A stretch of DNA of 60,436 nucleotides, filler included, from 5 parts of 5 records of this genome joined end to end with filler, not necessarily neighbours in it; one strand, 5' to 3'. Counted from the whole stretch's first letter, positions 3,751 through 25,739 are shown. Notes: generated from the letters alone by a model not told the origin. Translations and numbers: made by a program.

Positions 3751-5694
3751 TTACGCTTGCCCGGACAGACTGGACGGCGCAGCATCGGTTTGATTTGGCA
3801 TGGACAGTGGCGGTCGCCCGCCTCCGGAAGTGCTGGCCTTCGCAGGTGCGGGCTCATGGGCGGCATCCTCGGAAGCGCCATCCGCTTGGGCACCAGCTTC
3901 GGCGGCTGGAGCGGTCTTCGGTCGGACGGTGTTCGCGTGCTCGGCAAACGACAATTCACCAAGTCCACCAAGCAGCTCTTGGCTCAGTGATTCTTCACAG
4001 CCATTTGAATCGGTCATTGCTGCGACAACGCCCTGAACGCGTCGGCGGTCAATGGGTTCATTGCCTTGTGGGGAAGCTGGAGCCGTCTGTGTCGTCGCCG
4101 TTGGTGTTATCGCCGTCTGTGGGATCACATCTGAGCGGCGATTGTCGTGTCCTCCACGATTGTCACTGCCACGACGATTTTCACTCCCTCGGCGTCTTCG
4201 TTCAGCTCCGGCCGGTAACGCACCGGCGTCAGCTACGCGAACTTGGTCACTCATTCGGCGACCAACGCCCGCGAAATCGGAAGCTCTGCGTCCGAAGCCA
4301 CCTGTGGGTTGTAGATCCATTGGACTGAACAGGAAGACGAGCCCAAGGCCAAACATCAGGCCGCATCCTGTGGCAGCGGCTACGATGGTCGCCTTACCAG
4401 GACCGACGGGGGTTTCGCCCACCAGCGGATCATCTAAACGAGTCACCAAGCTCGAAGTACTGGCTGCATTGCGCGAAGCGACCGCGCTAGCGAGTTCCAT
4501 TTCCGCTCGCTGCAGTTGTTCATTTCGACTGCGCACTTCAGCGGCTACATTGGAGTAGTCTGCCCGAATGCCGGCGAGAACCGAAAGTCGTTCTTCCAGG
4601 TATTCTTGTTTGCTCTTGAGGCGTCGCGCTCGTTCGGCTGTGATCTCAAGCTCTTGTTCTAGGTTATCGATCGCGACAGCAAGTTCGTCGTGAATTTGTT
4701 CCACGATTTTCGCTTCGGTGGCCTTGGCGGCTACGACCTGCGGATGCTGTTCTTTGAATCTTCCAGTCAACTCGCTTCGAGTGATCGATGCATCAGCAAG
4801 CCCTTGACGAAGCTTTAGTAGTCCTGGGTTGCTGGACAGTACCTTGGCGGGTGCGGAAAGGAACTTCTTCGGCGACTCAAGAGACTCTAGCGCAACGCCA
4901 TGTTCCGCTTGAAGTTGTTGCTGACGTAGCTCTACAGCCAAGAGCTCACTCTTAACGGCGTCCAGGCGAGTACGATTGGCGCTTCCGCCAACGTTCGCGT
5001 CGGTCAGACTGCGTAGATCGCTAAGGTCCGCACCAGCCGATGCTTCGAGCTTCTTCAGTTTTTCAGTCGAAGTCTCCAAAGCCACGCGTGCACTTTCTGC
5101 AGCGGTCTTTAGTTCTGCGATGACACCGTCGGCCCGAACACGCCGAACCTCCTGCAAGTGTTTTTCGAGTTCTTCAGTGACGGCACGGTTGAGTTTGTTC
5201 GCATGCTCAGGCGTCTTTGCCGAAACGTCCAAGTAGATCACCTCAGTTGTGCCAAGTTCCGCACCGCGCGGAGCACGAACCTCAATGCCGTCTTTCGCGA
5301 GTGCCTCGACCTCTTTGGATGTAGGTGAACCAGAGGGGGCTTTTTTGCCGAACAGCTTGCTCAAACCCAGGGGATCTTTGCTGGGCTCGCGACCAACCTT
5401 GGTGAGAGCATTACGAAGTACCTGGGGATTTCTGGCCATCTCAAGAATTGTCTCTTGAGCAGCCTTCATCGCCGTTTGGCTTTCAAAGCGTCCTAAACGC
5501 ATGACTCCGCCGTTGGCTTCGTCGCGTACCAGTAATCCCTGGGATGAAACCCACTTGTCTTCTTTAAGAAGCGTTGCGTAGCCGACGCCCAACCCGCCGA
5601 AAAGCAGGGTGGTGAATACCCACAACAAACGCCATTGCCAGTACGTCTTTAGAAGAGTTAGCAGGTGTTTATTGGTTATCTTGGGAGCAGTCAT
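3751..5694 (-). CDS. GumC/Wzz-like polysaccharide co-polymerase with a long low-complexity Arg-rich C-terminal tail and no kinase domain
   Basis: N-terminal TM, long coiled coil, FKEQHPQV motif, P-x-GP before the second TM; no Walker motifs after TM2. Confidence 0.75.
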   Translation of the reverse strand: MTAPKITNKHLLTLLKTYWQWRLLWVFTTLLFGGLGVGYATLLKEDKWVSSQGLLVRDEANGGVMRLGRFESQTAMKAAQETILEMARNPQVLRNALTKVGREPSKDPLGLSKLFGKKAPSGSPTSKEVEALAKDGIEVRAPRGAELGTTEVIYLDVSAKTPEHANKLNRAVTEELEKHLQEVRRVRADGVIAELKTAAESARVALETSTEKLKKLEASAGADLSDLRSLTDANVGGSANRTRLDAVKSELLAVELRQQQLQAEHGVALESLESPKKFLSAPAKVLSSNPGLLKLRQGLADASITRSELTGRFKEQHPQVVAAKATEAKIVEQIHDELAVAIDNLEQELEITAERARRLKSKQEYLEERLSVLAGIRADYSNVAAEVRSRNEQLQRAEMELASAVASRNAASTSSLVTRLDDPLVGETPVGPGKATIVAAATGCGLMFGLGLVFLFSPMDLQPTGGFGRRASDFAGVGRRMSDQVRVADAGALPAGAERRRRGSENRRGSDNRGGHDNRRSDVIPQTAITPTATTQTAPASPQGNEPIDRRRVQGVVAAMTDSNGCEESLSQELLGGLGELSFAEHANTVRPKTAPAAEAGAQADGASEDAAHEPAPAKASTSGGGRPPLSMPNQTDAAPSSLSGQA

Positions 5695-6948: not shown

Positions 6949-8343
6949 TTAGTCAAGGAAACCTCCCGCTGATCTAACTTGAGGGCTCGAGCGCGGGCCG
7001 CTTGCACTTCCGCGGTTGCTGGATTCGCCCTGGTAAGGCCCCGGCGCAGGTGCGGGGCGACTGCCACTGGCGGGCCGGACAACGCTGCGTTCGAATTCTG
7101 AATTCGTGCCTGCCGTGTGTCCGCCGGTGGAGCGGAGGTCCGAATTGTTTCGACTGGAGCCTGCGTGCAGCGTTCCCGCTGGAGTTGGCTCGGCTAAGTT
7201 GCCCCGCGAGGGCGCCCGAGGAGTCCACACAGTCTTGCCAGTCGATTCCGACCAAAGGAAAATTTCTTTGTAGCCCACGACGCGGCGGCCATCTTTGAAT
7301 GTGTATCTCGCAAAGACGAGCACTTTGTCGGCTCGTGGGTTTTGACCGTTCCACGGTAGACGAAGGTGGATACCTTGCTGTGCGCCGATTGGCTCCATCT
7401 TGCCTTTGACATCGTCCTCGGTGTACGACCAAAGCCCAATGCGATCTTGGCCCTTCGGCAGTGACGGATCGAGGATAGCAATCTGCAATTGCCCCGGTAC
7501 GTTGACCATCTGCCCGTGACGATTTTTCGGTTGCAGGACAATGTAAACTCCATCGTCGCCATCTTCACCGTCTAGATCGATTGCTCGAGTGATGGTCGGA
7601 TGGAAGGCGATTTCGATTACGCGTTTGTCAGTGACTTGTTGAACGGCTGGTGTTAGCGATGCCTTTTCGGGAAGGGCATGCGACGCGGTGAGAGCAGGCA
7701 CTTGTACCTGGGACAGACTTAGCTCCATTTCGCTATCGGGCAGTTCTGCTGGTGCGCTTGCAACCACATCGTCTTGCGTTTGCTGTCCAAAACCAATGGA
7801 TGGCGGCTCGGATTGTTGCGGCGCAATGGGAAAGTCGGATTGTGTGCCCGACCGGCCATCAGCGGCTGGGCTGCCACGCGTTTGAAAGCCCTCGGGTGGT
7901 TCAAGCAGCGAGACGGGCGGTGCTCCCTCGGATCCCATCTCAATGGCAGGTGGGGAAACTGAATCCAAATCAAAATCGCCGGTGTCATCAAATCCATCGT
8001 TGCCCGGAGGTGATGGCAGGGAGTTGCGTGTGCTGGGGCGGTTGGAGCGAGGCGGAGTCGGAGACTTTGTTCGGCCGCGGGTCAAATCGTCCAGAATGGA
8101 CGGACGACGCGTCTCAGTTGAATTTGCCCCGTCGCTCTCCAGATAGTCGAGCTGTCGTTGCAGGGATGCGTTCTGATTCTCCAGCCGCCGATACTCGTAG
8201 TCGTACTCGTACAACTGATCTTCTAAATCCCGGATCTCGGCACTCATCGTCTCAATGTACAAATCGTCGCGTGCTCGACCGCGGCAGCCGCTCAACAGCG
8301 CACCGACAGCCAGCATACCCAACAGGTACTGGATCCGGTGCAT
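6949..8343 (-). CDS. Hypothetical lipoprotein (N-terminal coiled coil, Pro/Ser-rich linker, C-terminal globular domain)
   Basis: Lipobox LLSGC after MHRIQ start; long ORF co-oriented with the HEAT lipoprotein. Confidence 0.7.
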   Translation of the reverse strand: MHRIQYLLGMLAVGALLSGCRGRARDDLYIETMSAEIRDLEDQLYEYDYEYRRLENQNASLQRQLDYLESDGANSTETRRPSILDDLTRGRTKSPTPPRSNRPSTRNSLPSPPGNDGFDDTGDFDLDSVSPPAIEMGSEGAPPVSLLEPPEGFQTRGSPAADGRSGTQSDFPIAPQQSEPPSIGFGQQTQDDVVASAPAELPDSEMELSLSQVQVPALTASHALPEKASLTPAVQQVTDKRVIEIAFHPTITRAIDLDGEDGDDGVYIVLQPKNRHGQMVNVPGQLQIAILDPSLPKGQDRIGLWSYTEDDVKGKMEPIGAQQGIHLRLPWNGQNPRADKVLVFARYTFKDGRRVVGYKEIFLWSESTGKTVWTPRAPSRGNLAEPTPAGTLHAGSSRNNSDLRSTGGHTAGTNSEFERSVVRPASGSRPAPAPGPYQGESSNRGSASGPRSSPQVRSAGGFLD

Positions 8344-8536
8344 TGAAGTAAGTCTTGGTGGCCGTCTCACGTGTGTGCCGCTTAAGCTACTGCTTTGCTG
8401 CAATCCTGCCGTCGAAGGTGGTGCTTCTGAGCAGAATCGTTAAAGTTCTCTGTGCGAAGTACCGAAACTCGGCAGCCGGTGTCAAGACGAGCTGAACCGA
8501 AAGCTACCAATCTGCCTGCGTAATAGTGCCAACACC

Positions 8537-9253
8537 ATGAAGCTTCGAGTCCTGTTTGAGGACAATCACCTCCTGGTCGTCGACAAGAATGCTGGCATTG
8601 CCACGATGGGCAGTGCTGCTGGGCAAACGTCGATGGTAGAAATGGCCGCGGCGTACTTGAAGGAGAAGTACAACAAGCCAGGCAACGTGTTCGTAGGCGT
8701 GGTCAGCCGTCTGGATCGGCTGGTGACCGGAGTGCTCGTATTGGCTCGAACCAGCAAGGCAGCCTCGCGGCTTAGTGAGCAGTTTCGCCAGAGGAGTCCA
8801 ACGAAACGCTACGTTGCCATCGTTGAAGGGGCCATTGATAGCAAGCGGAAGGATGACGAGGGCTGGATTCTTCTGAGAGATCACGTCGTCAAGAATGACG
8901 CTCGCCATCGCATGGAGATCAGCCGTGGTGCGGGCGGGCAACTTGCCGAGATGAAAATCCGCGTTCTGACGCAATCGAGAAAGCGTAGCCTAGTCGAAGT
9001 GGATTTGATGACCGGAAGGAAGCATCAGATTCGATTGCAACTAAGTGCACTTGGGCACCCGATCGTGGGTGACCAAAAATATGGTAGCAGCCACCGCGAA
9101 ATTTCCAGTGGCATTGCACTCCACTGTTCGCAGCTTGTCATTCAACACCCGACGCTTCGCCAGCCGCTTCAATTCCAGACGTCGTGCCAGAACGTTTGGA
9201 AATCTCTGTTGCTGCCAGACGAAATCGAAGCCATCACAGCAAACGGCCTCTGA
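8537..9253 (+). CDS. RluA-family RNA pseudouridine synthase
   Basis: VLFEDNHLLVVDK, SRLDRLVTG catalytic motif, TGRKHQIR, PIVGDQKYG, ALH. Confidence 0.92.
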   Translation: MKLRVLFEDNHLLVVDKNAGIATMGSAAGQTSMVEMAAAYLKEKYNKPGNVFVGVVSRLDRLVTGVLVLARTSKAASRLSEQFRQRSPTKRYVAIVEGAIDSKRKDDEGWILLRDHVVKNDARHRMEISRGAGGQLAEMKIRVLTQSRKRSLVEVDLMTGRKHQIRLQLSALGHPIVGDQKYGSSHREISSGIALHCSQLVIQHPTLRQPLQFQTSCQNVWKSLLLPDEIEAITANGL

Positions 9254-9303
9254 CACCTGCTACCTGTGGGCCAGTGCTACCTGAGGCCACAGTCTCGCCC
9301 TGC

Positions 9304-9356
9304 GACATCCGATTGGCGTAGGACATCCGATCGCCGTAGGACATCCTATCGCCTAC
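9304..9356. repeat. 18-bp tandem repeat x3
   Basis: gacatccgattggcgtag / gacatccgatcgccgtag / gacatcctatcgcctac, between convergent genes. Confidence 0.8.
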
Positions 9357-11182
9357 TCTTCCGTGGCAGTAGGTTGGCCGGGGGCAGTTGGAATCGTTGG
9401 TCCAGCGGGGGCTGTCGGCTCCACTGTTGACGATGCATCTACGCTGCCGGCCGCAATGGTGCCCGTTAGAGCTTCAGCCGTCGCCGCATCGGTTGCATTG
9501 ATTGCTTCATCAGTGCTGCCTGCTTCGTTGGCGGCCTGGTCGGCTGACGAGATGCTGTTGGCGTTGTCGAAATCTGTAATCGTGAAATCTTGTCGGTTGA
9601 CGATCGGACTGGTACCCGTCTGCAACTCGGTCGTAATCTTGTACTTACCAGGCGGAAGTGGCCCAGGCATCCGGAACTCCAAGTCCTCGCTCTTGCCCGG
9701 CATCAACCACTTTCCGTATCCAGCCGAGACAATGAAGCGTTTCCCTGCCTCAGACACGACAACCAACCTCGAGTCGAGCGGAACGTGTACTGCACCGGTG
9801 TTTCTCACAAACGCCCGGAAAGCTGGCTTGCTGCCCGTGTCGACCCATCGTGCAGGTTCCAGTTCCAATTGCGGGGCTTCGGTATCGCCATACTGTATCG
9901 CAATCGGAATGCTGCCTGTCGTGTCCAATTCTCCACGCAGTGCCCGAGACGTAATGGCCATAGCTCCATAGCTAATAGCTTCGTCGAAGTCGCGGGTTCT
10001 TCGCAGCGAGATGCTCAGACGTCGGTTGCGACCTGGCGAAAGGGTGAATTCGCTGGGTTGTAGCATCAGCCCCTGAATTGGGCTGCCATCGGCGGTCAGA
10101 GGCTGGAGCATTATCGAACGTGCTTCGGACGAGTTGTTCTTGAACTCCATGCTCAATCGGCGATTGCCACCGCGAACCTGAGACAATTCAACTCGGGCTG
10201 GAGTTGTGTAAATTCCACCGCCGACGGACGCGATCTGCGCACTTTGAGCGGGGTAGTCTTTGGTGTTGGCCAGCACGGAGAAACTCTTCTTGTTGACTTC
10301 CCGTCCACTGACCAACATGGCCACTTCCATTTCGTACTCGCCATCCATCAGTGGTTCTGGCACAATCTCTTGCATCTGAATGGTGCTGCCCGGCAAGATC
10401 CTGGCGACGAAGCGTTCTTCGGTCTCCACACCTTGGCGGACCGGCATCACCAGCCGCACTGGTTTGAACGATCGATCGCTGGGCGAGCGTTTTAGCCGCG
10501 CCCGCATCTCGAATTCAAACGCCGTGTCGGTTGGATTGCGAATTCTTGTGGTCAGTCCTGGGAAACCGTTAGCTGTCGCGAGCTGGCCGTCTTCGATCAT
10601 CAGCGCTTCGGCTCTCTGACCGCGCGAACCCAGCACTTCGAGATCAATACGGAGGACGTATTGGGTGATAAAGTTGATGCCCGCCGAAGTGAGCGGTTGA
10701 CCCTCTTCGTCGAGTTGGTCGCCAGCGTTGCGTCGTGTGCCAAAGTCCTTGACCAGGACGCCGTATGAATGAAACGCAGCGTTGCTACTGGGGACGCGGA
10801 CGATACCTTCAATGATGTGCGGCTGATCACGCAGAATAGTGTAACGTCCGGGATTGACCAACTGAATTACACCGTCATCAACGGTGGTTTCGTCGTGGAG
10901 AATCTGACCGGAGATCTCTTGCCGAAGCCCCACCAGGGAGACTTCGATATCAGCCTCTTTGTTCTTTGGCGTGACTTGAAACTGAAACTGCAGCACATCG
11001 CCCCGTCGGCCTTGGATGCGGTGCACCAGCGGTTCAATACTGAAGGCCGGTTCAAAAGTCTGGGTGACGCTCACCTTCCGCTGACCAAATGCGACTGAGC
11101 CAAGGGTGCTCAAAATGCAAATGGTTGCGACGAGAATTGTGGTAGAGTTTTTACGTAGCATGGGGGCTGCCTGATTCCGCAT
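9353..11182 (-). CDS. Secreted protein with two tandem pilus-chaperone-like (PapD/EcpB-like Ig-fold) modules
   Basis: Signal peptide; module 1 FSIEPLVH..RVP..YVLRIDLEV plus RIRNP..ILPG..GEYEMEV; module 2 TPARVEL..PSEFTLSPG..IPIAIQ plus VRNTGAVH..LMPG..PGKYKI; start overlaps the secretin stop (TAATG). Confidence 0.6.
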   Translation of the reverse strand: MRNQAAPMLRKNSTTILVATICILSTLGSVAFGQRKVSVTQTFEPAFSIEPLVHRIQGRRGDVLQFQFQVTPKNKEADIEVSLVGLRQEISGQILHDETTVDDGVIQLVNPGRYTILRDQPHIIEGIVRVPSSNAAFHSYGVLVKDFGTRRNAGDQLDEEGQPLTSAGINFITQYVLRIDLEVLGSRGQRAEALMIEDGQLATANGFPGLTTRIRNPTDTAFEFEMRARLKRSPSDRSFKPVRLVMPVRQGVETEERFVARILPGSTIQMQEIVPEPLMDGEYEMEVAMLVSGREVNKKSFSVLANTKDYPAQSAQIASVGGGIYTTPARVELSQVRGGNRRLSMEFKNNSSEARSIMLQPLTADGSPIQGLMLQPSEFTLSPGRNRRLSISLRRTRDFDEAISYGAMAITSRALRGELDTTGSIPIAIQYGDTEAPQLELEPARWVDTGSKPAFRAFVRNTGAVHVPLDSRLVVVSEAGKRFIVSAGYGKWLMPGKSEDLEFRMPGPLPPGKYKITTELQTGTSPIVNRQDFTITDFDNANSISSADQAANEAGSTDEAINATDAATAEALTGTIAAGSVDASSTVEPTAPAGPTIPTAPGQPTATEE

Positions 11183-12774
11183 TATTGATACGGGACAATT
11201 CTTGGCGAGATGAAAATCGCCACTTCAGCATCCTGCTCTTGTTTCTCGATTGTCCGGAAAAAGGTGCCGATCAGGGGGAGTGATCCCAGGAAAGGCACTT
11301 TGTTGACTCGATCGACGGTCTGTCGTTGAATTAATCCGCCGATCACGATTGTGTGTCCGTCGCGGACGTCCACCTTTGTCGATACCTGGCGGCGGTTAAT
11401 AATAGGATACGGATTGTTGTTTAGCGCTGGATTCGATCCATTTGAGCGTATGTCTTCACTCACCTCGGCGCGTTCTATTTCGACGCTAACGATATCACCG
11501 CGTATGCGGGGAATGATCTCCAAAGTGATGCCAGCATCGACCTTCTGAACATCTTGCCGAAAGAGCACATTCGAAGCAGTTGGTTGTAGTGAGAAGAACG
11601 TCTCACGTGCGATTGAAATGGAAGCCTTCTCACCGTCTTTGGCCGTTACACTAGGCTGTGCCCGGATCGTAACATAGCCCTCCTGCGAAAGCAGTTTTAC
11701 GAAAGCGCTCGTGACGGCAAACTCATTGAAGGCATTGTTCAGGCCGTAGGGACTGGCCGATGCACTCAGTGACAGTCCACTCAATCCGACGTTGACCTGA
11801 TTAGTGTCATCCAGTGAAAGTACATGGTTCCAATCCATGCCGAATTGGAAACCACTATCGGGCGAAGTTACACAAACGATCGCTTCGAGCACGACCTGCT
11901 GAACGGGTCGATCAAGATGCTGGAGCCGCTGAAGGATATCTGCGGCAATCTGCTCCGGTGCATCGATAACAATTAAGTTTCGTTCGTCAGATACTTGGTA
12001 AAAATCAACGTAACGCGCCGGCAGCAATTCAACCAACTTGGTCGGCAAATGCGAATTCGGTACATACTGCCGATTCGTGGACACGTACCGAAACAACGCG
12101 GCATCTGGATCGGGAGGAGAAACGACGTAAGTGCCTTCGTGTTTTGCATAGACATAACCTAGAGGCAACAGCACCTGTTTGAGGGCTTCTTCGAAAGTCG
12201 CGTTTTCGATCTCCATTGTGATAACGCCACCAACCGTGTCGTCGACCACGACCTTATCGCCCGTCGTCTCGGCCAGGATCTCGATTGCTTCGCGGACATC
12301 GGTAAGATCGAAATATTCGCTTACGCGTATGCCATCGCTCTGATCTGGCAGAGGCAACGCTTCCTGGATAACTGGTTCGGTAGCAGAAGCAAAACCGACC
12401 AAGGGCAGAGGGCTGATGTTCGATTCGTCGAGCTTGACTTGGTCTAGGATCTCGACGGCATCGAAGCTCTCCATGGTGCCCGGAGCTTCAATCGCAAGCG
12501 GCTCGGCTATGCTATCGGTGATGTTATCGGCTCCGGTCTCGATACGTTCTGGAGCATCGGAGAGCGTGGCGGTCGCGTGGCCATCGGTGGCGAGTCGGGT
12601 TGTCGTTGTCATGATGCTGCCGGAGTGGACCGCCGGGCGTGCGACATGAACGGCATCTTGATATAGGTCTGCAATACTCCGCCGCTCGATCTGCGCATTC
12701 TGCGCACAGCCGACCATGGTCAGCGCAACTGCCAGGAGTGCAGTTTCTTGAATGCGTGCAGAAGTTGGCAACAT
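11182..12774 (-). CDS. Outer-membrane secretin (GspD/PilQ superfamily), probable lipoprotein
   Basis: STN-like N0 domain (DVREAIEILA), N3 (DERNLIVID..LDRPVQQVVLEA), AQPSVTAKDGEKASI, DAGITLEIIP, VRDGHTIVIGGLI..KVPFLGSLPLIGTFFR..IFISPRIV; lipobox MVGC. Confidence 0.9.
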   Translation of the reverse strand: MLPTSARIQETALLAVALTMVGCAQNAQIERRSIADLYQDAVHVARPAVHSGSIMTTTTRLATDGHATATLSDAPERIETGADNITDSIAEPLAIEAPGTMESFDAVEILDQVKLDESNISPLPLVGFASATEPVIQEALPLPDQSDGIRVSEYFDLTDVREAIEILAETTGDKVVVDDTVGGVITMEIENATFEEALKQVLLPLGYVYAKHEGTYVVSPPDPDAALFRYVSTNRQYVPNSHLPTKLVELLPARYVDFYQVSDERNLIVIDAPEQIAADILQRLQHLDRPVQQVVLEAIVCVTSPDSGFQFGMDWNHVLSLDDTNQVNVGLSGLSLSASASPYGLNNAFNEFAVTSAFVKLLSQEGYVTIRAQPSVTAKDGEKASISIARETFFSLQPTASNVLFRQDVQKVDAGITLEIIPRIRGDIVSVEIERAEVSEDIRSNGSNPALNNNPYPIINRRQVSTKVDVRDGHTIVIGGLIQRQTVDRVNKVPFLGSLPLIGTFFRTIEKQEQDAEVAIFISPRIVPYQ

Positions 12775-13516
12775 GAAGGGGAATCTACGAAGTGCGGCTT
12801 GCAAAGGACCACTGCACAATCACCAGAAGCGTTCAAGAGAACCTGTCACGCAATGACACACTACGCTTGGGGGCTTCTTGGTTGCCGATCATGATGCAGT
12901 TGCCGCTTAAGCAGGCTGAAACCGGATTCATTGTCTCGGTTCCGTTTCGCCGAATAGCTCAGCAGCGGGGCAACTCTTCGTATAACCGCAAAATGCAAGT
13001 GGTGACAATAGCAGCTATTGCGGGGGATTTTTGCGCTGGATTTCTGCGCTAGTGTTTGCAAATCTCGGCCAGCCCAAAAGTGCACGAAGCGCGCCGTGGC
13101 TGATTGATAGCATTTTCGTGCGACGCTTGATCGCGATCAGTGATTGCACAAACTGCGAAGCTGGGGAAAACCAACGCGACTCGCCCTCGAATCGGGTTGA
13201 ACGTACCGCATGATAGCAGCACTCGTTGGGTAGGAACCGTGGGTTCGAATTGCCTTTCCGCAGATCCGAAGATCTTGTGTATTGTTTGCCAGCAATTGGG
13301 CGAGATTGCGGGACTTGTTTGCCTGCAATCAATCCTCGGCGGCGGAGAGGAACAGATAAGCACTGTGAGCTCACTGCATCCGAGGACTGGTTGCGCTGGC
13401 GGTGTTTGGTTTGCGAGCAGACCTGGATCGGCTGGCAAGTTAAACGGGCGATGCCTGTGCGATGCTGGGACGACCCCAGGTGCAAAGACCTGCCGCGTGA
13501 CGAACGACTAGCTGTT

Positions 13517-14038
13517 CTAGTTGGCTGCAACGGTACCGACAACGGTCATGTCATAGTCGCCCGCAGCAAAGACACCAAACTCTTCAGTGATGAAGCTCAC
13601 CGTCAGGTCAATATTGGCACGGCCAACGCCGTTGCTAGACGCAGTAACTTGTGCAACTGGATCGTTGTTGACATAGTCAGTCTGGTCGGTCGCGGTGCCG
13701 ATGTTCCAAGTAGCAGGACCTTGTGTGGTGCCGAGTGCAATAGCTAGGCCAGCGTCACGTTGGAAGTTACCGCTGGAGTGCTTGAAAACGTCTTGAGTTG
13801 CGAAAGTGACCGTCAATCCGTTCGACGCATTTCCTTTCACGACCCAAGTCTGAGCAGGGAAAAGGTTGTCAGCATCTGTCTCATCGTGCACAATCTGAGC
13901 CGCTCCAGGTGCAACGATACTCAAACCGGTGGGTACAACAACTCGGAAACCCTGAGAGTCGTTTTGGGCAAAGCCAGTGCCTGATAGTAGCGAGAATGCA
14001 GCGACCGTGGCGGTGATAGTTAGGATTCGATTGATCAT
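13517..14038 (-). CDS. Small secreted beta-rich protein, chaperone-usher-like pilin subunit
   Basis: Sec signal (..GTGFA), N-terminal alternating strand FRVVVP, C-terminal AAGDYDMTVVGTVAAN resembling the pilin G-x-Y-x-x-T-V terminal strand; GGAG RBS. Confidence 0.6.
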   Translation of the reverse strand: MINRILTITATVAAFSLLSGTGFAQNDSQGFRVVVPTGLSIVAPGAAQIVHDETDADNLFPAQTWVVKGNASNGLTVTFATQDVFKHSSGNFQRDAGLAIALGTTQGPATWNIGTATDQTDYVNNDPVAQVTASSNGVGRANIDLTVSFITEEFGVFAAGDYDMTVVGTVAAN

Positions 14039-14309
14039 GTTGGGGGACTCCAAACAAATTTAATCTGTGGGGGGCAAACTCGTGAAGCAGGGCCCTCGCC
14101 TCACGTCAAAAACTTAGGCCACTAACGCACCGGAATGTCGACCACATGGCGAGAAATGAGCCATAAATCGAGTCGAAAACTGGATTTCTTGTGGGTTTCC
14201 CCCCGGCGTTAGGTACACCAAGTTTCACACTGAGTAGAGGCATGCTCAAGCTGAAGCGCCAGGGCAATGCACAAAATGAAGCGCCAGGGAGAAAGAATGC
14301 ACCGAGTTG

Positions 14310-15227: not shown

Positions 15228-16598
15228 TTAGTCATTGTCGGCCGCTGTAGATTCCAGTAGGGATTCAACCTCGGATGACTGAGGACCGGAATTCGTCGGC
15301 TCTTCCTCAGATTCGACAACGAAGTCGCCCATGATACCAACTAGGTCAATGTCTTCAAATTCGCGATGCGAGCGCTCGAAAGGAATTTCCTCCAATAGAC
15401 TAAGTGAATCGAGTAGTTCACGTCGCTCTTGAATATTCAATTGATTGGCGAACTCGCGAGCTCGTTCCTCGTCGAAACCGACCAGCCAATGGCGATGCTT
15501 CATAATCAACAGTTCATCTGCACCATCAAGCAGGATGTCGCTGACCCAGATCGGCGGAGCAGCCTTGTGAACCGTGCGGATCATTTCGTCAATGTTCGAG
15601 ACGCGGCCTCTACGACGTGGCGGTGGATCCCACGACTCAGGAAATGCCGCTCTTGATTCACTCTGAACCATGTACTGAATCGCTTCGCTCAACTCATCGT
15701 TCTTGATCAGTCGTTCAACTTCTGCGGCGCGGTACATCTTTGGCTGGAAATACGCGATCCCACCGAATAGACACGCGAAGACAACGCCTGCCAAAGCCCA
15801 AAGTCTCCAATGAATGATGACTCGTCTTTCCATAGCCTGCAGTTCGGGAAGTGCACGGTATTCAGCGCCAAAGCGGTAGGCCAAATAGGCCAACGAGACG
15901 GCGACGGATATTCCCAGTGTCCAAACTGAAATACCGACAACTGCATCCGAGAACCGCGTCACCGCTTGTTCCGCAGCAGTTTGACGAATGCCACCCATGA
16001 TGCCTACCAAACTAATTTGCTGCTGGATAAGGCCGCCGATTGCCACGATTGTGCAAGGGATCAGAATCCAAGCCAGCGATATGATCATCGGTCTTCCGTA
16101 GCGAACGGAAACAAATCTCGAGAACAATAAGACACGCCAAACAGAGACTATGCTCAGTAAAGTGAGATTGGCGACGACAGCCGTATACTCGCTAAACAGT
16201 GTTTCAACAGGGATTGCGTACAACCACGCTAGTGGCGCTGTGAGCCAATATCCGGCAAGAAAAATAACATAGTCGCCAGTGGTGAATTTTTCTGGTGCAA
16301 CCATCTTCTGTCTGGGCAACATCGCCAGCCAAACAAATAGAAACGTTGCCAGAATGATGCTGGCGGCGAAGGGGGCCAACAGGTCTTGGGGGCTATGCCA
16401 CAAGCTAACGGCGTCATACTCCCGGCTGAATGCAGCCGTGGCAACCAACACTGCTCCGAAAACGAGTGGACGACGACAGTGGATAAGTTTCTCGATCGCC
16501 CGGCGACTCCCGAATAGAAATCCGACCAGGTCCCGGGGCCCGAACATCTCCTCTGACTTGTCTTCGCTCGCCTCAGTTGTTTCTGCCTGTTCGCCCAC
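15228..16598 (-). CDS. Hypothetical multi-pass membrane protein with a soluble C-terminal domain
   Basis: About 8 hydrophobic segments in a 456-codon ORF. Confidence 0.7.
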   Translation of the reverse strand: MGEQAETTEASEDKSEEMFGPRDLVGFLFGSRRAIEKLIHCRRPLVFGAVLVATAAFSREYDAVSLWHSPQDLLAPFAASIILATFLFVWLAMLPRQKMVAPEKFTTGDYVIFLAGYWLTAPLAWLYAIPVETLFSEYTAVVANLTLLSIVSVWRVLLFSRFVSVRYGRPMIISLAWILIPCTIVAIGGLIQQQISLVGIMGGIRQTAAEQAVTRFSDAVVGISVWTLGISVAVSLAYLAYRFGAEYRALPELQAMERRVIIHWRLWALAGVVFACLFGGIAYFQPKMYRAAEVERLIKNDELSEAIQYMVQSESRAAFPESWDPPPRRRGRVSNIDEMIRTVHKAAPPIWVSDILLDGADELLIMKHRHWLVGFDEERAREFANQLNIQERRELLDSLSLLEEIPFERSHREFEDIDLVGIMGDFVVESEEEPTNSGPQSSEVESLLESTAADND

Positions 16599-17193: not shown

Positions 17194-17221
17194 AATCACC
17201 ATGTACATCGCCAACCGTTAA
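17194..17221 (+). CDS. pqqA: PQQ precursor peptide PqqA, 3' end (partial)
   Basis: a atc acc atg tac atc gcc aac cgt taa = (E)ITMYIANR*, the PqqA ExxxY C-terminus, directly upstream of pqqB; absent from the ORF track. Confidence 0.9.
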
Positions 17222-17236
17222 TTTGACGGTTCGCAC

Positions 17237-17273
17237 AGCCCCGGATAGCCTTTCGGCTGGCGGGGCTTTTTTT
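17237..17273 (+). terminator. Hairpin plus U-tract between pqqA and pqqB
   Basis: agccccg..agcc tttc ggct..cggggct followed by a T-run. Confidence 0.75.
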
Positions 17274-17293
17274 ACCCCTGAAAAAAAGCAACT

Positions 17294-18226
17294 ATGAAAA
17301 TCAAAGTTCTGGGTTCCGCAGCAGGCGGAGGGTTCCCACAATGGAACTGTAACTGCAACAACTGCCAAGCTGTCAGGGCCAGAGCGCCTGGATACACTGC
17401 GCGCACCCAGTCGTCGATTGCCATATCGGACGGGTCGGCCAACTGGATTCTCGTGAACGCGTCGCCCGATATTCTTGCGCAAATCAAAAATACCCCAGAG
17501 TTACAACCCAATAGAGGACCACGCGACACCGGTATTTCTGCCGTCATTTTGATGGACGCGCAAATTGACCACACCACTGGCCTGTTGATGATGCGTGAAG
17601 GCAAAACACCCATGCGCCTTTACACCACACCCGCAGTGTGGGAAGACCTCACCAATGGTTTGCCCTTGGTACCCACTTTGGGATTTTATTGCGGCGTGAA
17701 ATGGACACCTTTGTGTACCGAATGCGACGACCCCCTCACCATCAGCCCGATGGACAGCATCAAGATCAAATCAATTCCATTGATCAGCAAAGCGCCGCCC
17801 TATTCGCCGAACCGATATGCGCAACGCCGTGGCGACAACATTGGCTTGCTGATCGAAGACATCAACACGGGCAAGAAGGTTTTTTATGCGCCGGGCCTCG
17901 GAGAAATTACGCCCGATATTCTGCCCTACATGCAACAAGCTGACGTGTTGATGGTGGACGGCACGTTCTGGACCGAAGACGAAATGGTCACACAGGGTTT
18001 CTCAACAAAAATGGCAGCCGATATGGGCCACCTGCCGCAAACCGACAAACCAGGCAAGCGTGGTTCAGGCATGATCAGTCAGCTTCGCCAATTCGAGCAC
18101 CAGCGCAAAATCCTGATTCACATCAACAACACCAACCCGATTTTGTACGAGCATGGCGACGAACGCGCCATTCTGGCCGACAATGGAATTGAAGTGTCTT
18201 ATGACGGCATGGAGATTCTTGCATGA
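17294..18226 (+). CDS. pqqB: PQQ biosynthesis protein PqqB
   Basis: [41 protein letters not shown]. Confidence 0.97.
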
Positions 18227-18948
18227 GCAGCAACAAGGCGTGGAGTAAAAAAGAGTTCGAAGAACGTCTGCGTGCCAAAGGCGACCGCTACCACATACAC
18301 CACCCTTTCAATGTGGCCATGCGTGAAGGCAAATTAAGCCGTGAACAATTGCGTGGTTGGGTGGCCAACCGCTTTTATTACCAGGTTTGCATTCCGCAAA
18401 AAGACGCCGCTGTGATGGCCAACTGCGACGACCGTGAAACCCGCCGCCGTTGGGTACAACGTATTCTTGACCACGATGGTTGGGAGGGCAATGCCGGTGG
18501 TATAGAGGCATGGAGCCGCCTGGGCGAAGCCGTGGGCATTGAGAGGGATGTACTGTGGAGCCAGCAACTGGTGTTGCCAGGTGTCCGTTTTGCGGTGGAC
18601 GCCTACGTGAATTTCGCGCGCCGTGCGCCATGGCAAGAGGCGGTGTGCTCGTCGCTGACCGAGATGTTCGCCCCTGAAATTCACAAACAGCGCCTGAGCA
18701 ATTGGCCCAAAGATTACAAATGGGTTGCTTCCGAGGGGTTGAATTACTTCCGCTCGAGAATCAGCCTTGCACAACGCGATGTGGAGCACGGACTGGAAGT
18801 GACCTTGAATTATTTCAAGACCCGCGCGCAACAGGAACGTGCGCTTGAAATTCTTCAATTTAAACTGGATGTATTGTGGAGTATGTCCGACGCGATCGCG
18901 TTGGCTTACCCCGACAAACCCGCCAAAACAAAACAGAAAAAACAATGA
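18223..18948 (+). CDS. pqqC: PQQ synthase PqqC
   Basis: [32 protein letters not shown]. Confidence 0.97.
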
Positions 18949-19226
18949 GCACCGAGACCATCCCGAACCTGCCGGAACTTCCCAAACTGAACCGCTTGTT
19001 CCGCCTTCAATATGAGGAGGCACAAAAAACGCATGTGTTGTTGTATCCGGAGGGAATGGTCAAACTGAATCAGTCCGCCAGTGAAATTTTGCTGCTGTGT
19101 GACGGTACGCGCACCGTGAGCGATATTGTCGCTGCGCTTGAAGCGAAATTCAACGCAAGCGGACTGGAAGCGGATGTGCGAAGCATGCTGCAAGAGGCCA
19201 CTCGACGAAACTGGCTGGAAGCATGA
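18945..19226 (+). CDS. pqqD: PqqD peptide chaperone
   Basis: [22 protein letters not shown] overlap with pqqC. Confidence 0.95.
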
Positions 19227-20419
19227 CAGGCGTGAGTTCAACCAACACTCGCCCCGCTGGCCCACTTTGGCTATTGGCTGAACTGACTTACCGCTGCCCG
19301 CTGCATTGTGTGTTCTGCTACAACCCGGTTGATTACAAGACCAACACGCATGAATTGAGCACTGCCGAGTGGAAAGACACCATGAAGCAGGCCCGTGCGC
19401 TGGGTGCAGTTCAATTGGGTTTTTCCGGTGGTGAGCCCTTGCTTCGAGACGACCTCGAAGAGTTGGTGGCCTATGGCCATGAACTGGGCTACTACACCAA
19501 CTTGATCACCTCAGGCATCGGCCTGAAACCCGCACGGCTTGATGCCCTGAAAGCCGCTGGCCTCGACCACATCCAGGTGAGTTTTCAAGATGCAACCCAG
19601 GCCGCAAATGATGCACTGAGTGATACAAAAACATTTGCCAAGAAACTGGAAATTGCAAGCGCTGTGAAAGCGGCCGGTTGGCCCATGGTGTTGAACGTGG
19701 TACTCCATCGGTTGAATCTCGACCACATTGATTCAATTATTGAGTTGGCTGTCAAACTGGGCGTTGAATACCTGGAGCTGGCGAATACCCAGTATTACGG
19801 CTGGGCATTTAAAAACAAGGCTGCCCTGATTCCGACCCATGAACAGTTAAAACACGCCGAAGAACGCGTAGCCGTGTGGCGCGAGAAGTTGGGCAACCGC
19901 ATGAAATTGTTGTTCGTGGTGCCCGATTATTTCGAGAAAACCCCCAAGCCCTGCATGAGCGGATGGGGCAATGTTTTTCTCAGCATCAGCCCCGACGGCA
20001 CCGCTTTGCCATGCCAGGCCGCACGCATGCTGCCCGGCTTTGAATTTCCAAATGTAAAAACCAGCACGGTTGAACACATTTGGTACGAGAGCGATGGATT
20101 CACCCGTTACCGTGGCGATGCGTGGATGAAGGACCCCTGCAGAACCTGCCCCGACATGGCCAAAGATTACGGCGGTTGCAGGTGCCAGGCCTACCTGATC
20201 ACAGGCGACGCCACCAGCGCCGACCCGGTATGCCACAAATCACCTGATCATGACAAAGTAATCGCCTTCGTTGATGCGGCGCAGCGCCGCGACAATCCCA
20301 ACGATTACCTGAAGGTTCAGAAGCCTGAACAGCAAGCATTGGCCAATACCACCGAGGTGCCCGTGGTATGGTATCGCAGCGATCACAACAGCTTGCACCT
20401 CAGCAAAAACGGCACTTGA
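19223..20419 (+). CDS. pqqE: PqqE radical SAM/SPASM protein
   Basis: WLLAELTYRCPLHCVFC, PKPCMSGWG, GGCRCQA. Confidence 0.97.
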   Translation: MTGVSSTNTRPAGPLWLLAELTYRCPLHCVFCYNPVDYKTNTHELSTAEWKDTMKQARALGAVQLGFSGGEPLLRDDLEELVAYGHELGYYTNLITSGIGLKPARLDALKAAGLDHIQVSFQDATQAANDALSDTKTFAKKLEIASAVKAAGWPMVLNVVLHRLNLDHIDSIIELAVKLGVEYLELANTQYYGWAFKNKAALIPTHEQLKHAEERVAVWREKLGNRMKLLFVVPDYFEKTPKPCMSGWGNVFLSISPDGTALPCQAARMLPGFEFPNVKTSTVEHIWYESDGFTRYRGDAWMKDPCRTCPDMAKDYGGCRCQAYLITGDATSADPVCHKSPDHDKVIAFVDAAQRRDNPNDYLKVQKPEQQALANTTEVPVVWYRSDHNSLHLSKNGT

Positions 20420-21201
20420 ACACCACCAACACCGCAATCGACACCACCATCCGCCTGCACGCACAGGGCTTGTGCTTCTCTTGGGGAGAACGGCGGGCAC
20501 TGAGCAATGTCAGCCTTGATTTGAATGCAGGCGAAATGTTCGGCCTGCTCGGGCCCAATGGTGCCGGTAAAACCACGCTCATCAGCCTGATCGCAGGCCT
20601 GATCACTCCCGACCAGGGCGAGCTCTCGGTGCTGGGTTACAGCACCCGCAGGGCCGCAGACCTGGCTAGAAAAAATCTGGGTTTTGTGTTCCAGTCAGTG
20701 TCACTGGATCGTTTCATGACCGTGGAAGAAAACCTGATGTTTGCAGCAGGCCTGCAAGGTTTGAACAAGGCTCAAGCAAAAACCAATCTCGCACACCTGT
20801 TCACCATTTTCCCAATTCAGGCCTGGTTAAACCGCACCGTGGGAAGCCTGTCAGGCGGACAAAGAAGACTGGTGGACATTGCACGCGCCATGGTGCACAA
20901 ACCCGGCGTTCTTATTCTCGACGAACCCACCACTGCGCTGGACGTGCCGTCCAAAAACAGCGTGTGGCAAACCTTGAAGACCCTGCAGGCGATTGACGGA
21001 CTGACTATTTTCATTGCGACGCATTTGATGGACGAAGCCAACAGTTGCGACCGGGTCGGTTTTCTTCACCAAGGTGAATTGAATTGGCTGGGCACACCTG
21101 CACAAGCGCTGGATGAATTGCCCGACCAAAGCGTCACCAGCGTGCGCACAGCCACCCTGGCGGACTGGTTTGTCTGGAAAATGAACGGTGGAGCCCACTG
21201 A
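20416..21201 (+). CDS. ABC ATP-binding protein of the PQQ alcohol dehydrogenase system (PedB-like)
   Basis: [23 protein letters not shown] start overlapping the pqqE stop; context. Confidence 0.8.
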   Translation: MNTTNTAIDTTIRLHAQGLCFSWGERRALSNVSLDLNAGEMFGLLGPNGAGKTTLISLIAGLITPDQGELSVLGYSTRRAADLARKNLGFVFQSVSLDRFMTVEENLMFAAGLQGLNKAQAKTNLAHLFTIFPIQAWLNRTVGSLSGGQRRLVDIARAMVHKPGVLILDEPTTALDVPSKNSVWQTLKTLQAIDGLTIFIATHLMDEANSCDRVGFLHQGELNWLGTPAQALDELPDQSVTSVRTATLADWFVWKMNGGAH

Positions 21202-22018
21202 GATGTTGATGCATTTTTACTGGGCTGTAATACGCCGCGAAAGCCAAAAGCTGTTGAAGCAACGAGATCGCCTTGCAGCAGCCATGGTGCGCCCTGTGCT
21301 GTGGTTGTGGATCATCGGTGGCGGCATGCAAGCTTTGGCCGGCGGTGACTACACCGCACGTTTGCTACCCGGCATTGTGGGCATGACACTGCTGTTTGGC
21401 GGCATGGTGGGTGGCCTGAGCATTGCGCTGGACAAAGACGCCGGCACCATGCGCCTGCTGGTGACCGCCCCTGTCAAAACACACCACATCCTGATTGCAA
21501 AAACCCTCGGGGCCGCAATAGGTGCGCTGGTTCAAATGGGCTTGCTGATCACCTTGCTACTCGCGCTTGAAGGCCTGTACACCCTTCTGTTTCCCTTGGG
21601 CTTTGATTTACAAGACGTACTGCCATGGGTTGGTCGTACCTTGTGGCCTGAGTTACATGTACTGCTGCCAGGTGCGGCATTGGCCGCGATGACTTGTGCT
21701 GCCTTGGGTGTGCTGTGTGGTACTTTTGCAAAAAGCATTGATGGTTTTGCAGTCATGATGAACTTCGTGATTTTTCCGGTGTTCTTTTTCAGCGGTGCCT
21801 TATACCCCATCGAACCCATGCCGGCCCTGGCACGTTGGGTAGCCTTGCTCAATCCATTTTCTTACTGTGTCGACTTGCTGCGACATGCGTTCAGCAGCCA
21901 TGCTGAATTTGGTTTGATGTTTGCCACGCTGGTGCTTGTGGGTGCAACTGTGGCCATGCTGATTGTCGCCACCTGGAAGTTCTCGCAAAGTGGTGCAGCA
22001 GTGCCATTGAATCAATAA
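21188..22018 (+). CDS. ABC-2 permease of the PQQ alcohol dehydrogenase system (PedC-like)
   Basis: RLAAAMVRPVLWL, GTMRLLVTAP, FAVMMNFVIFPVFFFSGALYP, NPFSY. Confidence 0.8.
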   Translation: MEPTEMLMHFYWAVIRRESQKLLKQRDRLAAAMVRPVLWLWIIGGGMQALAGGDYTARLLPGIVGMTLLFGGMVGGLSIALDKDAGTMRLLVTAPVKTHHILIAKTLGAAIGALVQMGLLITLLLALEGLYTLLFPLGFDLQDVLPWVGRTLWPELHVLLPGAALAAMTCAALGVLCGTFAKSIDGFAVMMNFVIFPVFFFSGALYPIEPMPALARWVALLNPFSYCVDLLRHAFSSHAEFGLMFATLVLVGATVAMLIVATWKFSQSGAAVPLNQ

Positions 22019-22140
22019 AATACTATTTTTCAATAGATTTTATAGAGGATAATTCTATATTTTATAAGCACGATCGTTCGTATTTTTACTTACAATGTCC
22101 TCGGAAATTCCATTCTCAAAAACGGACCTACGAGGACGAC

Positions 22141-23418
22141 ATGAAACATTCCCCTTTCCAAATCAAAACGATCTGTGCTGCCGTCGCCACATTGAGCATG
22201 GCTGGTACCGTTCAGGCTGCAGGGTTTGCCCTGCTTGAACAAAATGCAAGTGGTGCCGGTGTGGCTTATGCAGGCAAAGCAGCCATTGGCGAAGACGCCA
22301 GCGCTGCTTGGTTTAACCCCGCCAGCATGAGCCGCCTGAAAGAACGCCAGGTTGTGCTGGGTGGGCACTACATCGACTTGAATAGCGAATTCAACAACGA
22401 AGGGTCTACTTCTCCTGCTGCAATGCCTGCGAACCCTGGTCGCAATGTGGGTGATTTCGGTTCAGAAGGTTACATCCCTAACTTTCATCTGGTTGTGCCC
22501 TTTAATGACAAGATCAATTTCGGTTTTTCTGTGGCCACTCCGTTTGGTTTGAAAACTGATTATCAAGCCGACTGGATTGGTCGCTTTCAGGGCATCACCT
22601 CTGACATCAAATCATTGAACATCAACCCGTCGCTGTCCTACAAGTTCAATGAACAGTGGTCTGCAGGCGTCGGCGTGTCAGCTCAAAAACTGGATGCCAA
22701 GCTCAGTTCTTCCACTGTATTGGGGCTGAATACTGAGTCGCTGACCACTATTGCTGGCGACGGTTGGGGTTATGGCTTTAACCTGGGTGTGATGGGTCAA
22801 GTCACACCAGCAACACGCGTAGGTATCGCCTATCGCTCAGCAATCGAACAGGATCTCGAAGGCAATGTCACATTCAGTGGCCCGGCCGCGGCCACGCAGA
22901 ATAGTGACTTGAGCAGCAAGATCCGCCTACCCTCTTCACTGAGCATTTCCAGCGTCACCGAGTTGAATCCCAAGTGGCAACTGTTGGCAGACGCCACATG
23001 GACCGAATGGACAACCATTCAGAAACTGCAGTTTGACCGTGTCAATGCAGGTGGAGGCGCTGCGCCCATTCCAGTGCAAGACTACGAATGGAAAAACAGC
23101 TGGCGCTTTGCGGTGGGTGGTATTTACAAGTACAGCGACACCATCAACCTGAAAGCCGGTTTGGCTTATGACATTACCCCAGTGCCCGACGAGCGTCGCA
23201 AAGTTCGCTTGCCGGATGAAAACCGAATTACTTTTGCCGTGGGATCACAGTACCAGTTCGACAAAGCCACCACCTTCGATGTGGCCTTTCAGTATGTGAT
23301 GCCCGACAAGGCAAAAATTGACAGCACTGAAGGCGCTGGTGGAGCTCAAAGCCGCATTCTTGGCACAGCCGAGGGCGATGCATTCATCCTCTCAGGCCAA
23401 GTGTCCTACAAGTTCTAA
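22141..23418 (+). CDS. FadL/OmpP1-family outer-membrane channel
   Basis: AAGFALLEQNASG..AYAG, WFNPA, PFGLKTDY, C-terminal YKF. Confidence 0.92.
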   Translation: MKHSPFQIKTICAAVATLSMAGTVQAAGFALLEQNASGAGVAYAGKAAIGEDASAAWFNPASMSRLKERQVVLGGHYIDLNSEFNNEGSTSPAAMPANPGRNVGDFGSEGYIPNFHLVVPFNDKINFGFSVATPFGLKTDYQADWIGRFQGITSDIKSLNINPSLSYKFNEQWSAGVGVSAQKLDAKLSSSTVLGLNTESLTTIAGDGWGYGFNLGVMGQVTPATRVGIAYRSAIEQDLEGNVTFSGPAAATQNSDLSSKIRLPSSLSISSVTELNPKWQLLADATWTEWTTIQKLQFDRVNAGGGAAPIPVQDYEWKNSWRFAVGGIYKYSDTINLKAGLAYDITPVPDERRKVRLPDENRITFAVGSQYQFDKATTFDVAFQYVMPDKAKIDSTEGAGGAQSRILGTAEGDAFILSGQVSYKF

Positions 23419-23650
23419 AACCTTCAGGCGAAAAAATGCCCGGCTCAAGGCCGGGCTGAAAAGACGCATTCGTTTAGGAGACTCTCAAACCGCCACAACT
23501 TTTTCCGGCTCCCAATCAATGCCGGAAAAAGGTCCCAAGGAGCAATTTGATTAAACCGTTTGCGTCAATAAGTTCCCTGCGGAGCAGGCAGAAAACTTGG
23601 GGGTGAAAATGACAACACTTCTAAAACGCTCTACTACTTCACTACTCACC

Positions 23651-23674
23651 AAACCACCCCACACGGGGCGGTTT
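23651..23674 (-). terminator. Hairpin downstream of the PQQ dehydrogenase
   Basis: aaaccacccc acac ggggcggttt inverted repeat. Confidence 0.55.
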
Positions 23675-23693
23675 GATGTACTTCACAAACTGA

Positions 23694-25439: not shown

Positions 25440-25523
25440 TATTTGTTTCTCCTCTCTTCATCCGTTACTTTGAGGTTCTCGCCCCTCGTTTGCAGAGTCG
25501 GGGCTACCCAGTGACAACCTAGC

Positions 25524-25538
25524 GCAAGCTTCATGCCA
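25524..25538 (-). promoter_or_regulatory. Sigma-54 promoter of the PQQ ADH gene
   Basis: Minus strand TGGCATGAAGCTTGC = GG-N10-GC; IHF-like AATCAGTACTTTA at 25578-25590. Confidence 0.8.
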
Positions 25539-25739
25539 AGTAGAATAATTCATCTAAATAAATTTTTTATTCAATAAAATCAGTACTTTAAGAAAACACC
25601 CTCATTTGAGTGATTTCCTTCACCGCGATCAACAAAAAAAGAGACAGTTTTGTGACATTGCAACAGCGCACCTGTTCAGCAACACACAAACTGTCCCTTT
25701 TTGACACACTTGGTACAGCGTTAACCCTGATGATTTTTC

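Follow-up and report, generated by a model that had tools for sequence, protein, structure and literature searches.

A candidate chaperone-secretin fibre module in Planctomycetota, in which a secretin may stand in the usher's place

Donor-strand pili of bacteria with two membranes are thought to need an usher, and the role usually assigned to secretins is in ATP-driven machines or in phage. A locus found in a stretch of DNA of 60,436 nucleotides (hereafter the window, filler included) raises the question of whether a donor-strand fibre could leave such a cell through a secretin. Three genes of this locus encode a small secreted protein of 173 aa (the subunit), a secretin and a secreted protein of 609 aa with chaperone-like domains. 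An earlier note on this DNA, made from the sequence alone, had proposed a hybrid pathway for them, with donor-strand pili exiting through the secretin. Our answer, which we hold with somewhat better than even confidence, is that the three genes form a self-contained 'chaperone-secretin' fibre module. The computational evidence on which it is built concerns the gene content and linkage of the locus, the fold and the unanchored, periplasmic nature of the chaperone, the distinct clade of the secretin, the lack of an usher and the terminal motifs of the subunit.

An ORF scan of the window recovered the three genes, all on the minus strand (Table 1), and so agreed with the co-orientation described earlier. 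The start codon of the 609-aa gene and the stop codon of the secretin gene have one base in common, which is the overlap that the earlier note had pointed out. For the secretin, the ATG at 12774 is a likelier start than the TTG, and the product begins MLPTSARIQ.

Table 1. Features of the three-gene locus and of its immediate surroundings (positions in the window)
Feature	Position	Strand	Description
Major subunit ('pilin') gene	13517..14038	-	ORF 13517..14053, ATG at 14038, giving 173 aa
Conserved non-coding spacer between subunit gene and secretin gene	12820..13516	-	about 700 bp
Terminator-like hairpin in the spacer	13194-13177		conserved
Secretin gene, predicted lipoprotein	11182..12819	-	545 aa from TTG; PF00263
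Tandem chaperone-like gene	9353..11182	-	609 aa; signal peptide, four beta-sandwich domains
Neighbouring ORF	6949-8403	-	484 aa, Pro/Ser-rich, N-terminal hydrophobic stretch, without Pfam family
Neighbouring ORF	15228-16598	-	456 aa, multi-pass membrane-like, without Pfam family

The AlphaFold2 (AF2) model of the 609-aa protein, with a mean predicted local distance difference test score (pLDDT) of 83.6, comprises a signal peptide, four beta-sandwich domains (residues ~45-186, ~192-312, ~318-435 and ~436-537) and a disordered, acidic low-complexity tail (540-609). In a structure search independent of Foldseek, the best match was that of residues 45-330 to the WxLIP protein of Enterococcus faecium (9i1y_A, Z 15.8, 238/267 residues aligned); Foldseek likewise returned WxLIP, as entries 9i1y and 9i25 (E ~5e-10). 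In the former search, residues 322-531 matched FimC (Z 13.4, 176/198 aligned), followed by SafB and YadV (both Z 13.3), CsuC (12.8), CupB2 (12.7), PapD (12.5), EcpB (12.3) and FaeE (11.9). This second half aligned to 163-184 residues across both domains of FimC, SafB, YadV, CsuC, CupB2, PapD and EcpB, and also with chain B of the CFA/I chaperone-adhesin entry 6k73. That the protein is a tandem chaperone by fold, as had been proposed from its sequence, is therefore strongly borne out by the predicted model, one half of which matches WxLIP and the other whole chaperones of chaperone-usher systems (Z 11.9-13.4).

Profile searches gave further indications for the first half. The 609-aa protein has a weak match to Pfam WxLIP_HBD (PF11797, E 0.01, 16.2 bits against a cut-off of 28.9) and none to PF06030. 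Twelve distant members of its family were scanned, one of which, the full-length P0291, clears the cut-off of Pfam WxLIP_PGBD (PF06030, 30.2 against 27.3 bits), and two more gave sub-threshold matches. Comparing the profiles of the four domains by hhalign showed homology between domains 2 and 4 (94.8%, E 4.9e-8) but none that could be detected between domains 1 and 3, and the architecture looks like a duplicated two-domain module. No hydrophobic helix, defined as a 19-residue window with a Kyte-Doolittle mean of at least 1.8, was found beyond residue 60 in any of the 45 homologues of the chaperone alignment or of 85 full-length representatives, and for this reason the 609-aa protein should be free in the periplasm. 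The family was single-copy in all ten genomes tested. Atlas neighbours of one homologue, P0144, include clusters of ~270-300 aa from Bacteroidota and Deinococcota that carry partial WxLIP_PGBD/WxLIP_HBD or 'PapD chaperone' labels. This hints at a wider spread of WxLIP-like chaperones in diderm bacteria than has been reported.

Linkage was followed in 24 sources, made up of the window itself, three loci that a collection scan had turned up and twenty regions taken out of genomes with a match to the subunit. Subunit, secretin and chaperone genes lie side by side in 23 of these and in all three loci of a phylum-wide search, so that the trio is kept together in 26 of 27 cases, an arrangement far beyond chance. 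No other family is common to more than 11 of the 24 sources. Of 251 genomes drawn from the family to which the closest metagenome-assembled genome (MAG) belongs, 28 gave a match to the subunit family. Of 401 drawn from the phylum, 9 gave one to the chaperone profile, with only three candidates scored per genome. Run against 1.84 billion representatives, the same profile gave 1517 matches at E 0.001, 467 at 1e-10 and 130 at 1e-30.

Six loci in five other Planctomycetota genomes extend this picture. Each has a chaperone homologue that is only remote (E 1e-12 to 1e-20), directly next to a secretin confirmed by Pfam. The gene order is here subunit-like genes, chaperone and secretin, often followed by a gene for a lipoprotein or a tetratricopeptide repeat (TPR) protein. 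Since the pairing survives deep divergence and a changed gene order, chaperone and secretin are likely to form a functional unit; remote pairings of this kind are found in other Planctomycetota and perhaps in other diderm phyla. The small secreted proteins that precede the pair end in AG-x-Y...L/V-T-V-type motifs. Compared by hhalign with the subunit profile, those of the six loci (L104-L109) gave no significant match beyond the signal peptide, and they may be termed pilin-like only by their size, signal peptide and C-terminal motif. The lipoprotein or TPR lipoprotein genes behind the secretin, pilotin-like in appearance, were seen in L104 (6458-6880), L105 (633-989), L108 (8506-9522) and L109 (1264-2280). 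The secretin of L106, of 919 aa, has its own TPR-containing N-terminal extension.

The subunit has a Sec signal peptide, MINRILTITATVAAFSLLSGTGFA/QND, with predicted cleavage after GFA and a mature protein starting at Q25, and its C-terminal end is AAGDYDMTVVGTVAAN. As read from the sequence the signal peptide is of the ordinary Sec type, not a type IV prepilin leader. The AF2 model (pLDDT 92.1) is all-beta and consists of a single beta-sandwich domain, in line with the secreted beta-rich protein of the earlier note. Its 109 homologues are all unannotated and come from Planctomycetota wherever source names are given; according to its source name one of them, P0097, is Rubripirellula amarantea Pla22_16070, from a cultured strain. 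No NCBIfam match was found for the subunit. In an alignment of 62 sequences the strongly conserved positions are Q29, V33, V35, P36, I41, A43 and P44 after the signal peptide and G160, Y162, T165, V166, G168 and T169 at the C-terminus; the subunit has a conserved N-terminal strand Q-x-F-x-V-x-V-P and a C-terminal motif AAGDY-x-x-TV-x-GTV. Between the window and its nearest relative (L001, 8147-8668) the subunit gene differs at 90 of 522 bases and the protein at 2 of 173 residues; the protein identity is 79% for the secretin and 82% for the chaperone. Judged from these sequences, purifying selection on the subunit is very strong, which is unusual for a presumed surface protein.

Many loci carry two to four paralogous subunits that share their terminal strands only. 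Besides the major subunit there are a minor form of 148-163 aa, sited between the subunit and secretin genes in 7 of the 24 sources, a second copy behind the chaperone gene, divergently transcribed copies and orphan copies. In every class Q-x-F-x-V-x-V-P follows directly after the signal peptide and AG-x-Y-x-x-T-V-x-x-T-V stands at the end, with a middle part that diverges. Fused or longer forms of the subunit were not found, which is weak evidence; long ORFs seen in the loci were artefacts of upstream extension.

The fold of the subunit is a less telling line of evidence than this pattern of paralogues. With the subunit model, the sole Foldseek match at E of 0.001 or below was the cannula protein CanA (7uii, 3.5e-4), and nine of the twelve top rows were donor-strand fibres (CanA, cannulae, bundling pili, FimG, Csu, Caf1 and CfaB). 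Two VIA structure searches gave a best Z of 7.7, for a CLIPPER domain, and many chaperone-usher subunits at Z 6.5-7.4; in the second search 21 of 50 rows, labelled from entry titles, were donor-strand subunits. With this aligner a Z below 8 may mean merely a common arrangement, and for that reason the fold evidence is suggestive. The Atlas neighbours of a stored subunit homologue include DUF4402, SCPU (Csu-type) and WxL clusters (the last with a score of 0.92), which are leads only.

Several results weigh against a donor-strand fibre and should be set against the above. All structural matches of the subunit stay below Z 8, and integrin domains and leukocidins score similarly. The subunit (173/178 aa) matched no Pfam family at E up to 1, SCPU, DUF4402 and WxL (PF13731) included, and no solved structure by sequence; PDB searches with two family profiles gave nothing of use. 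DSSP assigned no strand to residues 29-38 of the model, and hence neither self-complementation nor an incomplete fold is demonstrated. A search for a two-domain tip adhesin found none. As for the 609-aa protein, it gave no Pfam PapD_N or PapD_C match at E up to 1, nor could a counterpart of the basic pair that PapD-type chaperones conserve be located in it. Finally, in the one source that departs from the linkage (G614) the subunit and chaperone genes are on different contigs.

Some of these results would also be expected if the locus served, as a dedicated two-partner device, to export a small non-polymerising protein, with the secretin as pore, the 609-aa protein as holdase or adaptor, and the monomer released or displayed, for example as a surface lectin or a matrix protein. 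We regard this as unlikely, though deserving of consideration. The linkage of the three genes fits it equally well, the fold matches of the subunit fall below the significance bar of the aligner, and neither a tip adhesin nor an anchor subunit was found. What speaks against it is that both halves of the 609-aa protein match donor-strand chaperones of fibre subunits, and that paralogues sharing nothing but their terminal strands are the pattern of mutually fitting subunits and not of a single cargo. Moreover, secretins are not known to let free proteins through unless an inner-membrane motor takes part.

The 609-aa protein might alternatively be a structural part of the secretin complex, an Ig-domain ring, spacer or gate-keeper, and the small protein a separate, co-regulated envelope protein. 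Immunoglobulin (Ig)-like domains are common, and 132 chains reached Z of at least 8 against the chaperone model. In Foldseek the top rows were eukaryotic ciliary proteins with tandem Ig-like domains. The chaperone gene is, in addition, translationally coupled to the secretin gene and not to the subunit gene. Nevertheless, the matches to FimC and WxLIP described above cover whole two-domain chaperones rather than single Ig domains. In addition, 26 of the 27 loci have the subunit gene together with the pair, and in the distant loci there are pilin-like genes ahead of it. We thus consider such a role improbable.

The middle gene, read as a secretin in the earlier note, clearly encodes one (PF00263, E 5.7e-40, 137.1 bits against a cut-off of 27.5), with weak STN and N0 matches. 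The protein is composed of a long low-complexity linker, an N0/STN region (~170-235), an N3-like region and the secretin domain (377-542), and it is without an S-domain. Its lipobox is LTMVGC, and a lipobox was recognised in 14 of the 24 locus secretins by a regular expression and in 23 of the 24 by eye. Carrier genomes have 5-11 secretin matches each; in comparisons with the secretin domain of the window, scores run from 288 to 557 bits for the linked orthologues and do not exceed 79 for any other. In a maximum-likelihood tree of 55 secretin domains (short search, no bootstrap, without reference secretins, midpoint root for drawing only) the 27 linked secretins form one group with a Shimodaira-Hasegawa-like approximate likelihood-ratio test (SH-aLRT) support of 100. 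A branch with support of 87 sets off the 22 other secretins, which come from five carrier genomes, and the six remote chaperone-linked secretins are placed between the linked group and the others. The locus secretin is thus, by sequence, a dedicated one with its own clade, apart from the other secretins of its hosts. One source (L046) has tandem secretin genes (8790-10388 and 10672-12147), the second of which is on a very long branch.

The number of secretin matches per genome indicates that planctomycetes multiply secretins, and PilQ and GspD are about equally distant from the window secretin among solved structures. Both facts would suit an operon that is accessory to a canonical machine (type II secretion, type IV pilus or Tad) with its ATPase, platform and pilins encoded elsewhere, for which the secretin would be a spare outer-membrane channel. 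This we hold to be very unlikely. The linked secretins are a separate clade and fall far below the NCBIfam equivalog cut-offs (GspD 150.2 against 351.35 bits and PilQ 145.9 against 284.35, with MshL, HofQ and SctC also far below). Neither a secretion ATPase, a platform protein, a prepilin peptidase nor an usher is conserved across the 24 sources, and in the window none of the four was present among 19 flanking proteins scanned over ~9 kb on each side, as the earlier note had held for the locus. Furthermore, the subunit has an ordinary Sec signal peptide in place of a prepilin leader, and the adjacency of chaperone and secretin persists over deep divergence.

The absence of an usher was also followed to whole genomes. 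Neither the usher family PF00577 nor PapD_N (PF00345) was found in any of five carrier genomes, the E. coli control being positive for both; four of the five gave their matches on a contig of more than 7 Mb (genomes of 7.2-8.2 Mb). A classical chaperone-usher system with its usher elsewhere in the genome, which the chaperone-like fold of residues 322-531 might suggest, is after this search hardly credible. On the conservation of the trio, the missing usher and the grouping of the secretin, points that the earlier note had named as possible refutations, the outcome favoured its reading.

For the chaperone-secretin module that we favour, we infer that the chaperone binds the subunit, that strands are exchanged, that a fibre forms and that it passes the secretin, in the following manner. 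The subunit would cross the inner membrane via Sec and be captured in the periplasm by the soluble 609-aa protein, a tandem of a WxLIP/DUF916-DUF3324-like and a PapD/FimC-like two-domain module. By lending a strand to the beta-sandwich of the subunit (donor-strand complementation) the chaperone would keep it assembly-competent. Head-to-tail polymerisation would follow, with the conserved F-x-V-x-V-P strand at the N-terminus of each subunit displacing the chaperone strand in its neighbour (donor-strand exchange), and the thin growing fibre would exit via the dedicated lipoprotein secretin, which would take the usher's place. Strand exchange is exergonic in chaperone-usher pili. No ATPase would be needed here either, since the energy of folding drives donor-strand exchange, as it does in those pili.

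A bolder version of this proposal is that the 'chaperone-secretin pathway' is a distinct route of pilus assembly. The usher has two chaperone-subunit docking sites; in this version its catalytic function would pass to the four-domain chaperone, which would keep two subunits next to each other, and the lipoprotein secretin would be an exit pore only. We put it forward as a tentative and rather doubtful possibility. A single polypeptide that joins a module of the WxLIP type, known from the monoderm Elr and Pam pili, with one of the PapD type, known from diderm chaperone-usher pili, may also be an evolutionary link between the chaperone families.

Among known systems the WxL pilus of Enterococcus faecalis is a close point of comparison. 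In the available part of its description, ElrE (WxLIP, DUF916-DUF3324) is the donor-strand chaperone that primes the pilin ElrD through donor-strand complementation, and ElrD polymerises by donor-strand exchange via its N-terminal strand; a helix is given for 96.7% of WxL chaperones and the system is reported to be confined to Bacillota (bioRxiv 10.64898/2026.10.17.759780). By fold, the N-terminal half of the 609-aa protein of the planctomycete locus is like WxLIP (Z 15.8); by Pfam the window's own protein stays below the cut-off, and one distant family member clears that of WxLIP_PGBD. Common to both systems are also small secreted beta-sandwich subunits whose N-terminal strand is conserved, and neither has an usher. 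It differs in its two-membrane host and in its chaperone, which is soluble (C-terminal helix in 0 of 130 members) whereas WxLIP/ElrE is anchored in that partial account, and which carries a second, PapD-like module. A secretin is always linked, and the subunit has no Pfam WxL match. Neither an LPxTG anchor nor a sortase gene turned up at the locus, where no search aimed at the LPxTG motif was made.

With the chaperone-usher pili, above all the archaic and alternative types (Csu, CFA/I, Ecp), the locus has in common a soluble, periplasmic chaperone, the C-terminal half of which aligns to their whole chaperones, and the lack of an ATPase. The best fold neighbours of the subunit include CsuA/B, CfaB, AggA and FimG (Z of 7.7 or less), and its C-terminal AG-x-Y-x-x-T-V-x-x-T-V motif presumably recalls that of SCPU/Csu subunits. 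Unlike these systems it has neither an usher nor a Pfam PapD_N domain, its outer-membrane component is a secretin, and its chaperone has four domains in place of two.

The Pam pilus of candidate phyla radiation (CPR) bacteria has donor-strand pilins and FimC/PapD-like chaperones encoded in one operon without an usher; according to the accessible part of the report, its chaperones PamC and PamD are anchored in the membrane of cells that have no outer membrane, and the word 'secretin' is absent from that text (PMC13278184). The FimC/PapD-like chaperone fold and the missing usher are thus shared with the Pam pilus so far as it is described there, whereas at the planctomycete locus the chaperone is unanchored and linked to a secretin.

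The likeness to secretin machines, that is GspD of type II secretion (T2SS), PilQ of type IV pili (T4P), RcpA of Tad, type III secretion (T3SS) and pIV of filamentous phage, lies in the secretin itself, whose secretin domain is a genuine one and is joined by N0 and an N3-like region. Examples of lipidated secretins that pilot themselves are known. In contrast to those machines, it is not accompanied at its loci by an inner-membrane platform, an ATPase, a prepilin peptidase or any type IV pilin-like subunit, the secretin has its own clade, and its conserved partner is chaperone-like. The subunit also resembles chaperone-free donor-strand fibres (archaeal cannulae of CanA, bundling pili, TasA), to which its top Foldseek matches 7uii, 9h8b and 7ueg belong. 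The TM-scores are low (0.34-0.41), and those fibres need neither a dedicated chaperone to complete the fold nor a pore in the outer membrane.

The earlier note had also thought of planctomycete surface fibres. In the available text of Boedeker et al. the crateriform structures of planctomycetes bear fibres of 12 nm and 6 nm of unknown make-up (PMC5394234). As its distribution is patchy (28/251 and 9/401 genomes, see above), the trio is argued against as the general fibre of crateriform structures; a lineage-specific fibre could still hold.

The spacer between the subunit and secretin genes deserves mention. Blocks of it that are conserved with L001 score alike in all six frames, and it is therefore taken to be conserved as non-coding. 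Neither a remnant of a minor pilin nor an Rfam match was found in it, and promoter and terminator scans were at background level. The terminator-like hairpin that it contains could be an attenuator which sets a high ratio of subunit to machinery. In nine of the 24 sources a gene for a LuxR/NarL-type response regulator, with REC and HTH read from the sequence, lies upstream of the subunit gene (L038 at 4946-5635, L039, L040, L043, L044 and L047-L050); besides the three core families it is the only one to recur, and the window is without one. The neighbours of the locus in the window encode an RluA-type pseudouridine synthase, a methyltransferase, a HEAT-repeat protein, a Wzz-like protein and ABC transporters, and the flanks are unrelated to the trio, as had been noted; two ORFs without a Pfam family also adjoin it (Table 1).

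The window itself is of mixed origin, being Pirellulaceae-like in its first 17 kb only. From its start to ~17.2 kb it is syntenic with a Pirellulaceae MAG (G449) at 71-78% nucleotide identity, and the whole locus falls inside this part. Positions 17194-31274 are of another lineage, being 97-98% identical to a single contig (G001:C1:85781-99861) of an unrelated 3.2-Mb genome; the remainder of the window shows no more than a weak resemblance to that lineage. The 14-kb block contains PQQ (pyrroloquinoline quinone) biosynthesis genes, an ABC transporter, a FadL-type porin, a PQQ dehydrogenase and SoxYZ, and a 30-base exact repeat lies at the junction near 17194. The window is probably a chimeric assembly, a very recent transfer being less likely. 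G001 is kin to positions 17194-31274 only and not to the locus. Searches centred on it, which found the subunit in none of 151 genomes (order) and as one weak match among 301 (family), are uninformative.

A full-text search found no literature on a secretin and a donor strand in Planctomycetes, and none was found on DUF4402. Judged by titles and the openings of abstracts, no such system appears among the listed papers that join secretin, donor strand, chaperone and pilus. Most likely the trio represents a so far unreported form of donor-strand pilus assembly under the guidance of a chaperone, in which a secretin replaces the usher and the chaperone is soluble and has four domains. It would deserve the status of a separate pathway if the tandem chaperone indeed replaces the catalytic role of the usher. 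A conserved chaperone-plus-secretin module, if real, would break both of the rules with which we began, that on the need for an usher and that on the use of secretins. Moreover, the range of WxL-type chaperones would extend from Bacillota to the diderm Planctomycetota, and the three genes would be a candidate gene set for some of the unassigned surface fibres of planctomycetes.

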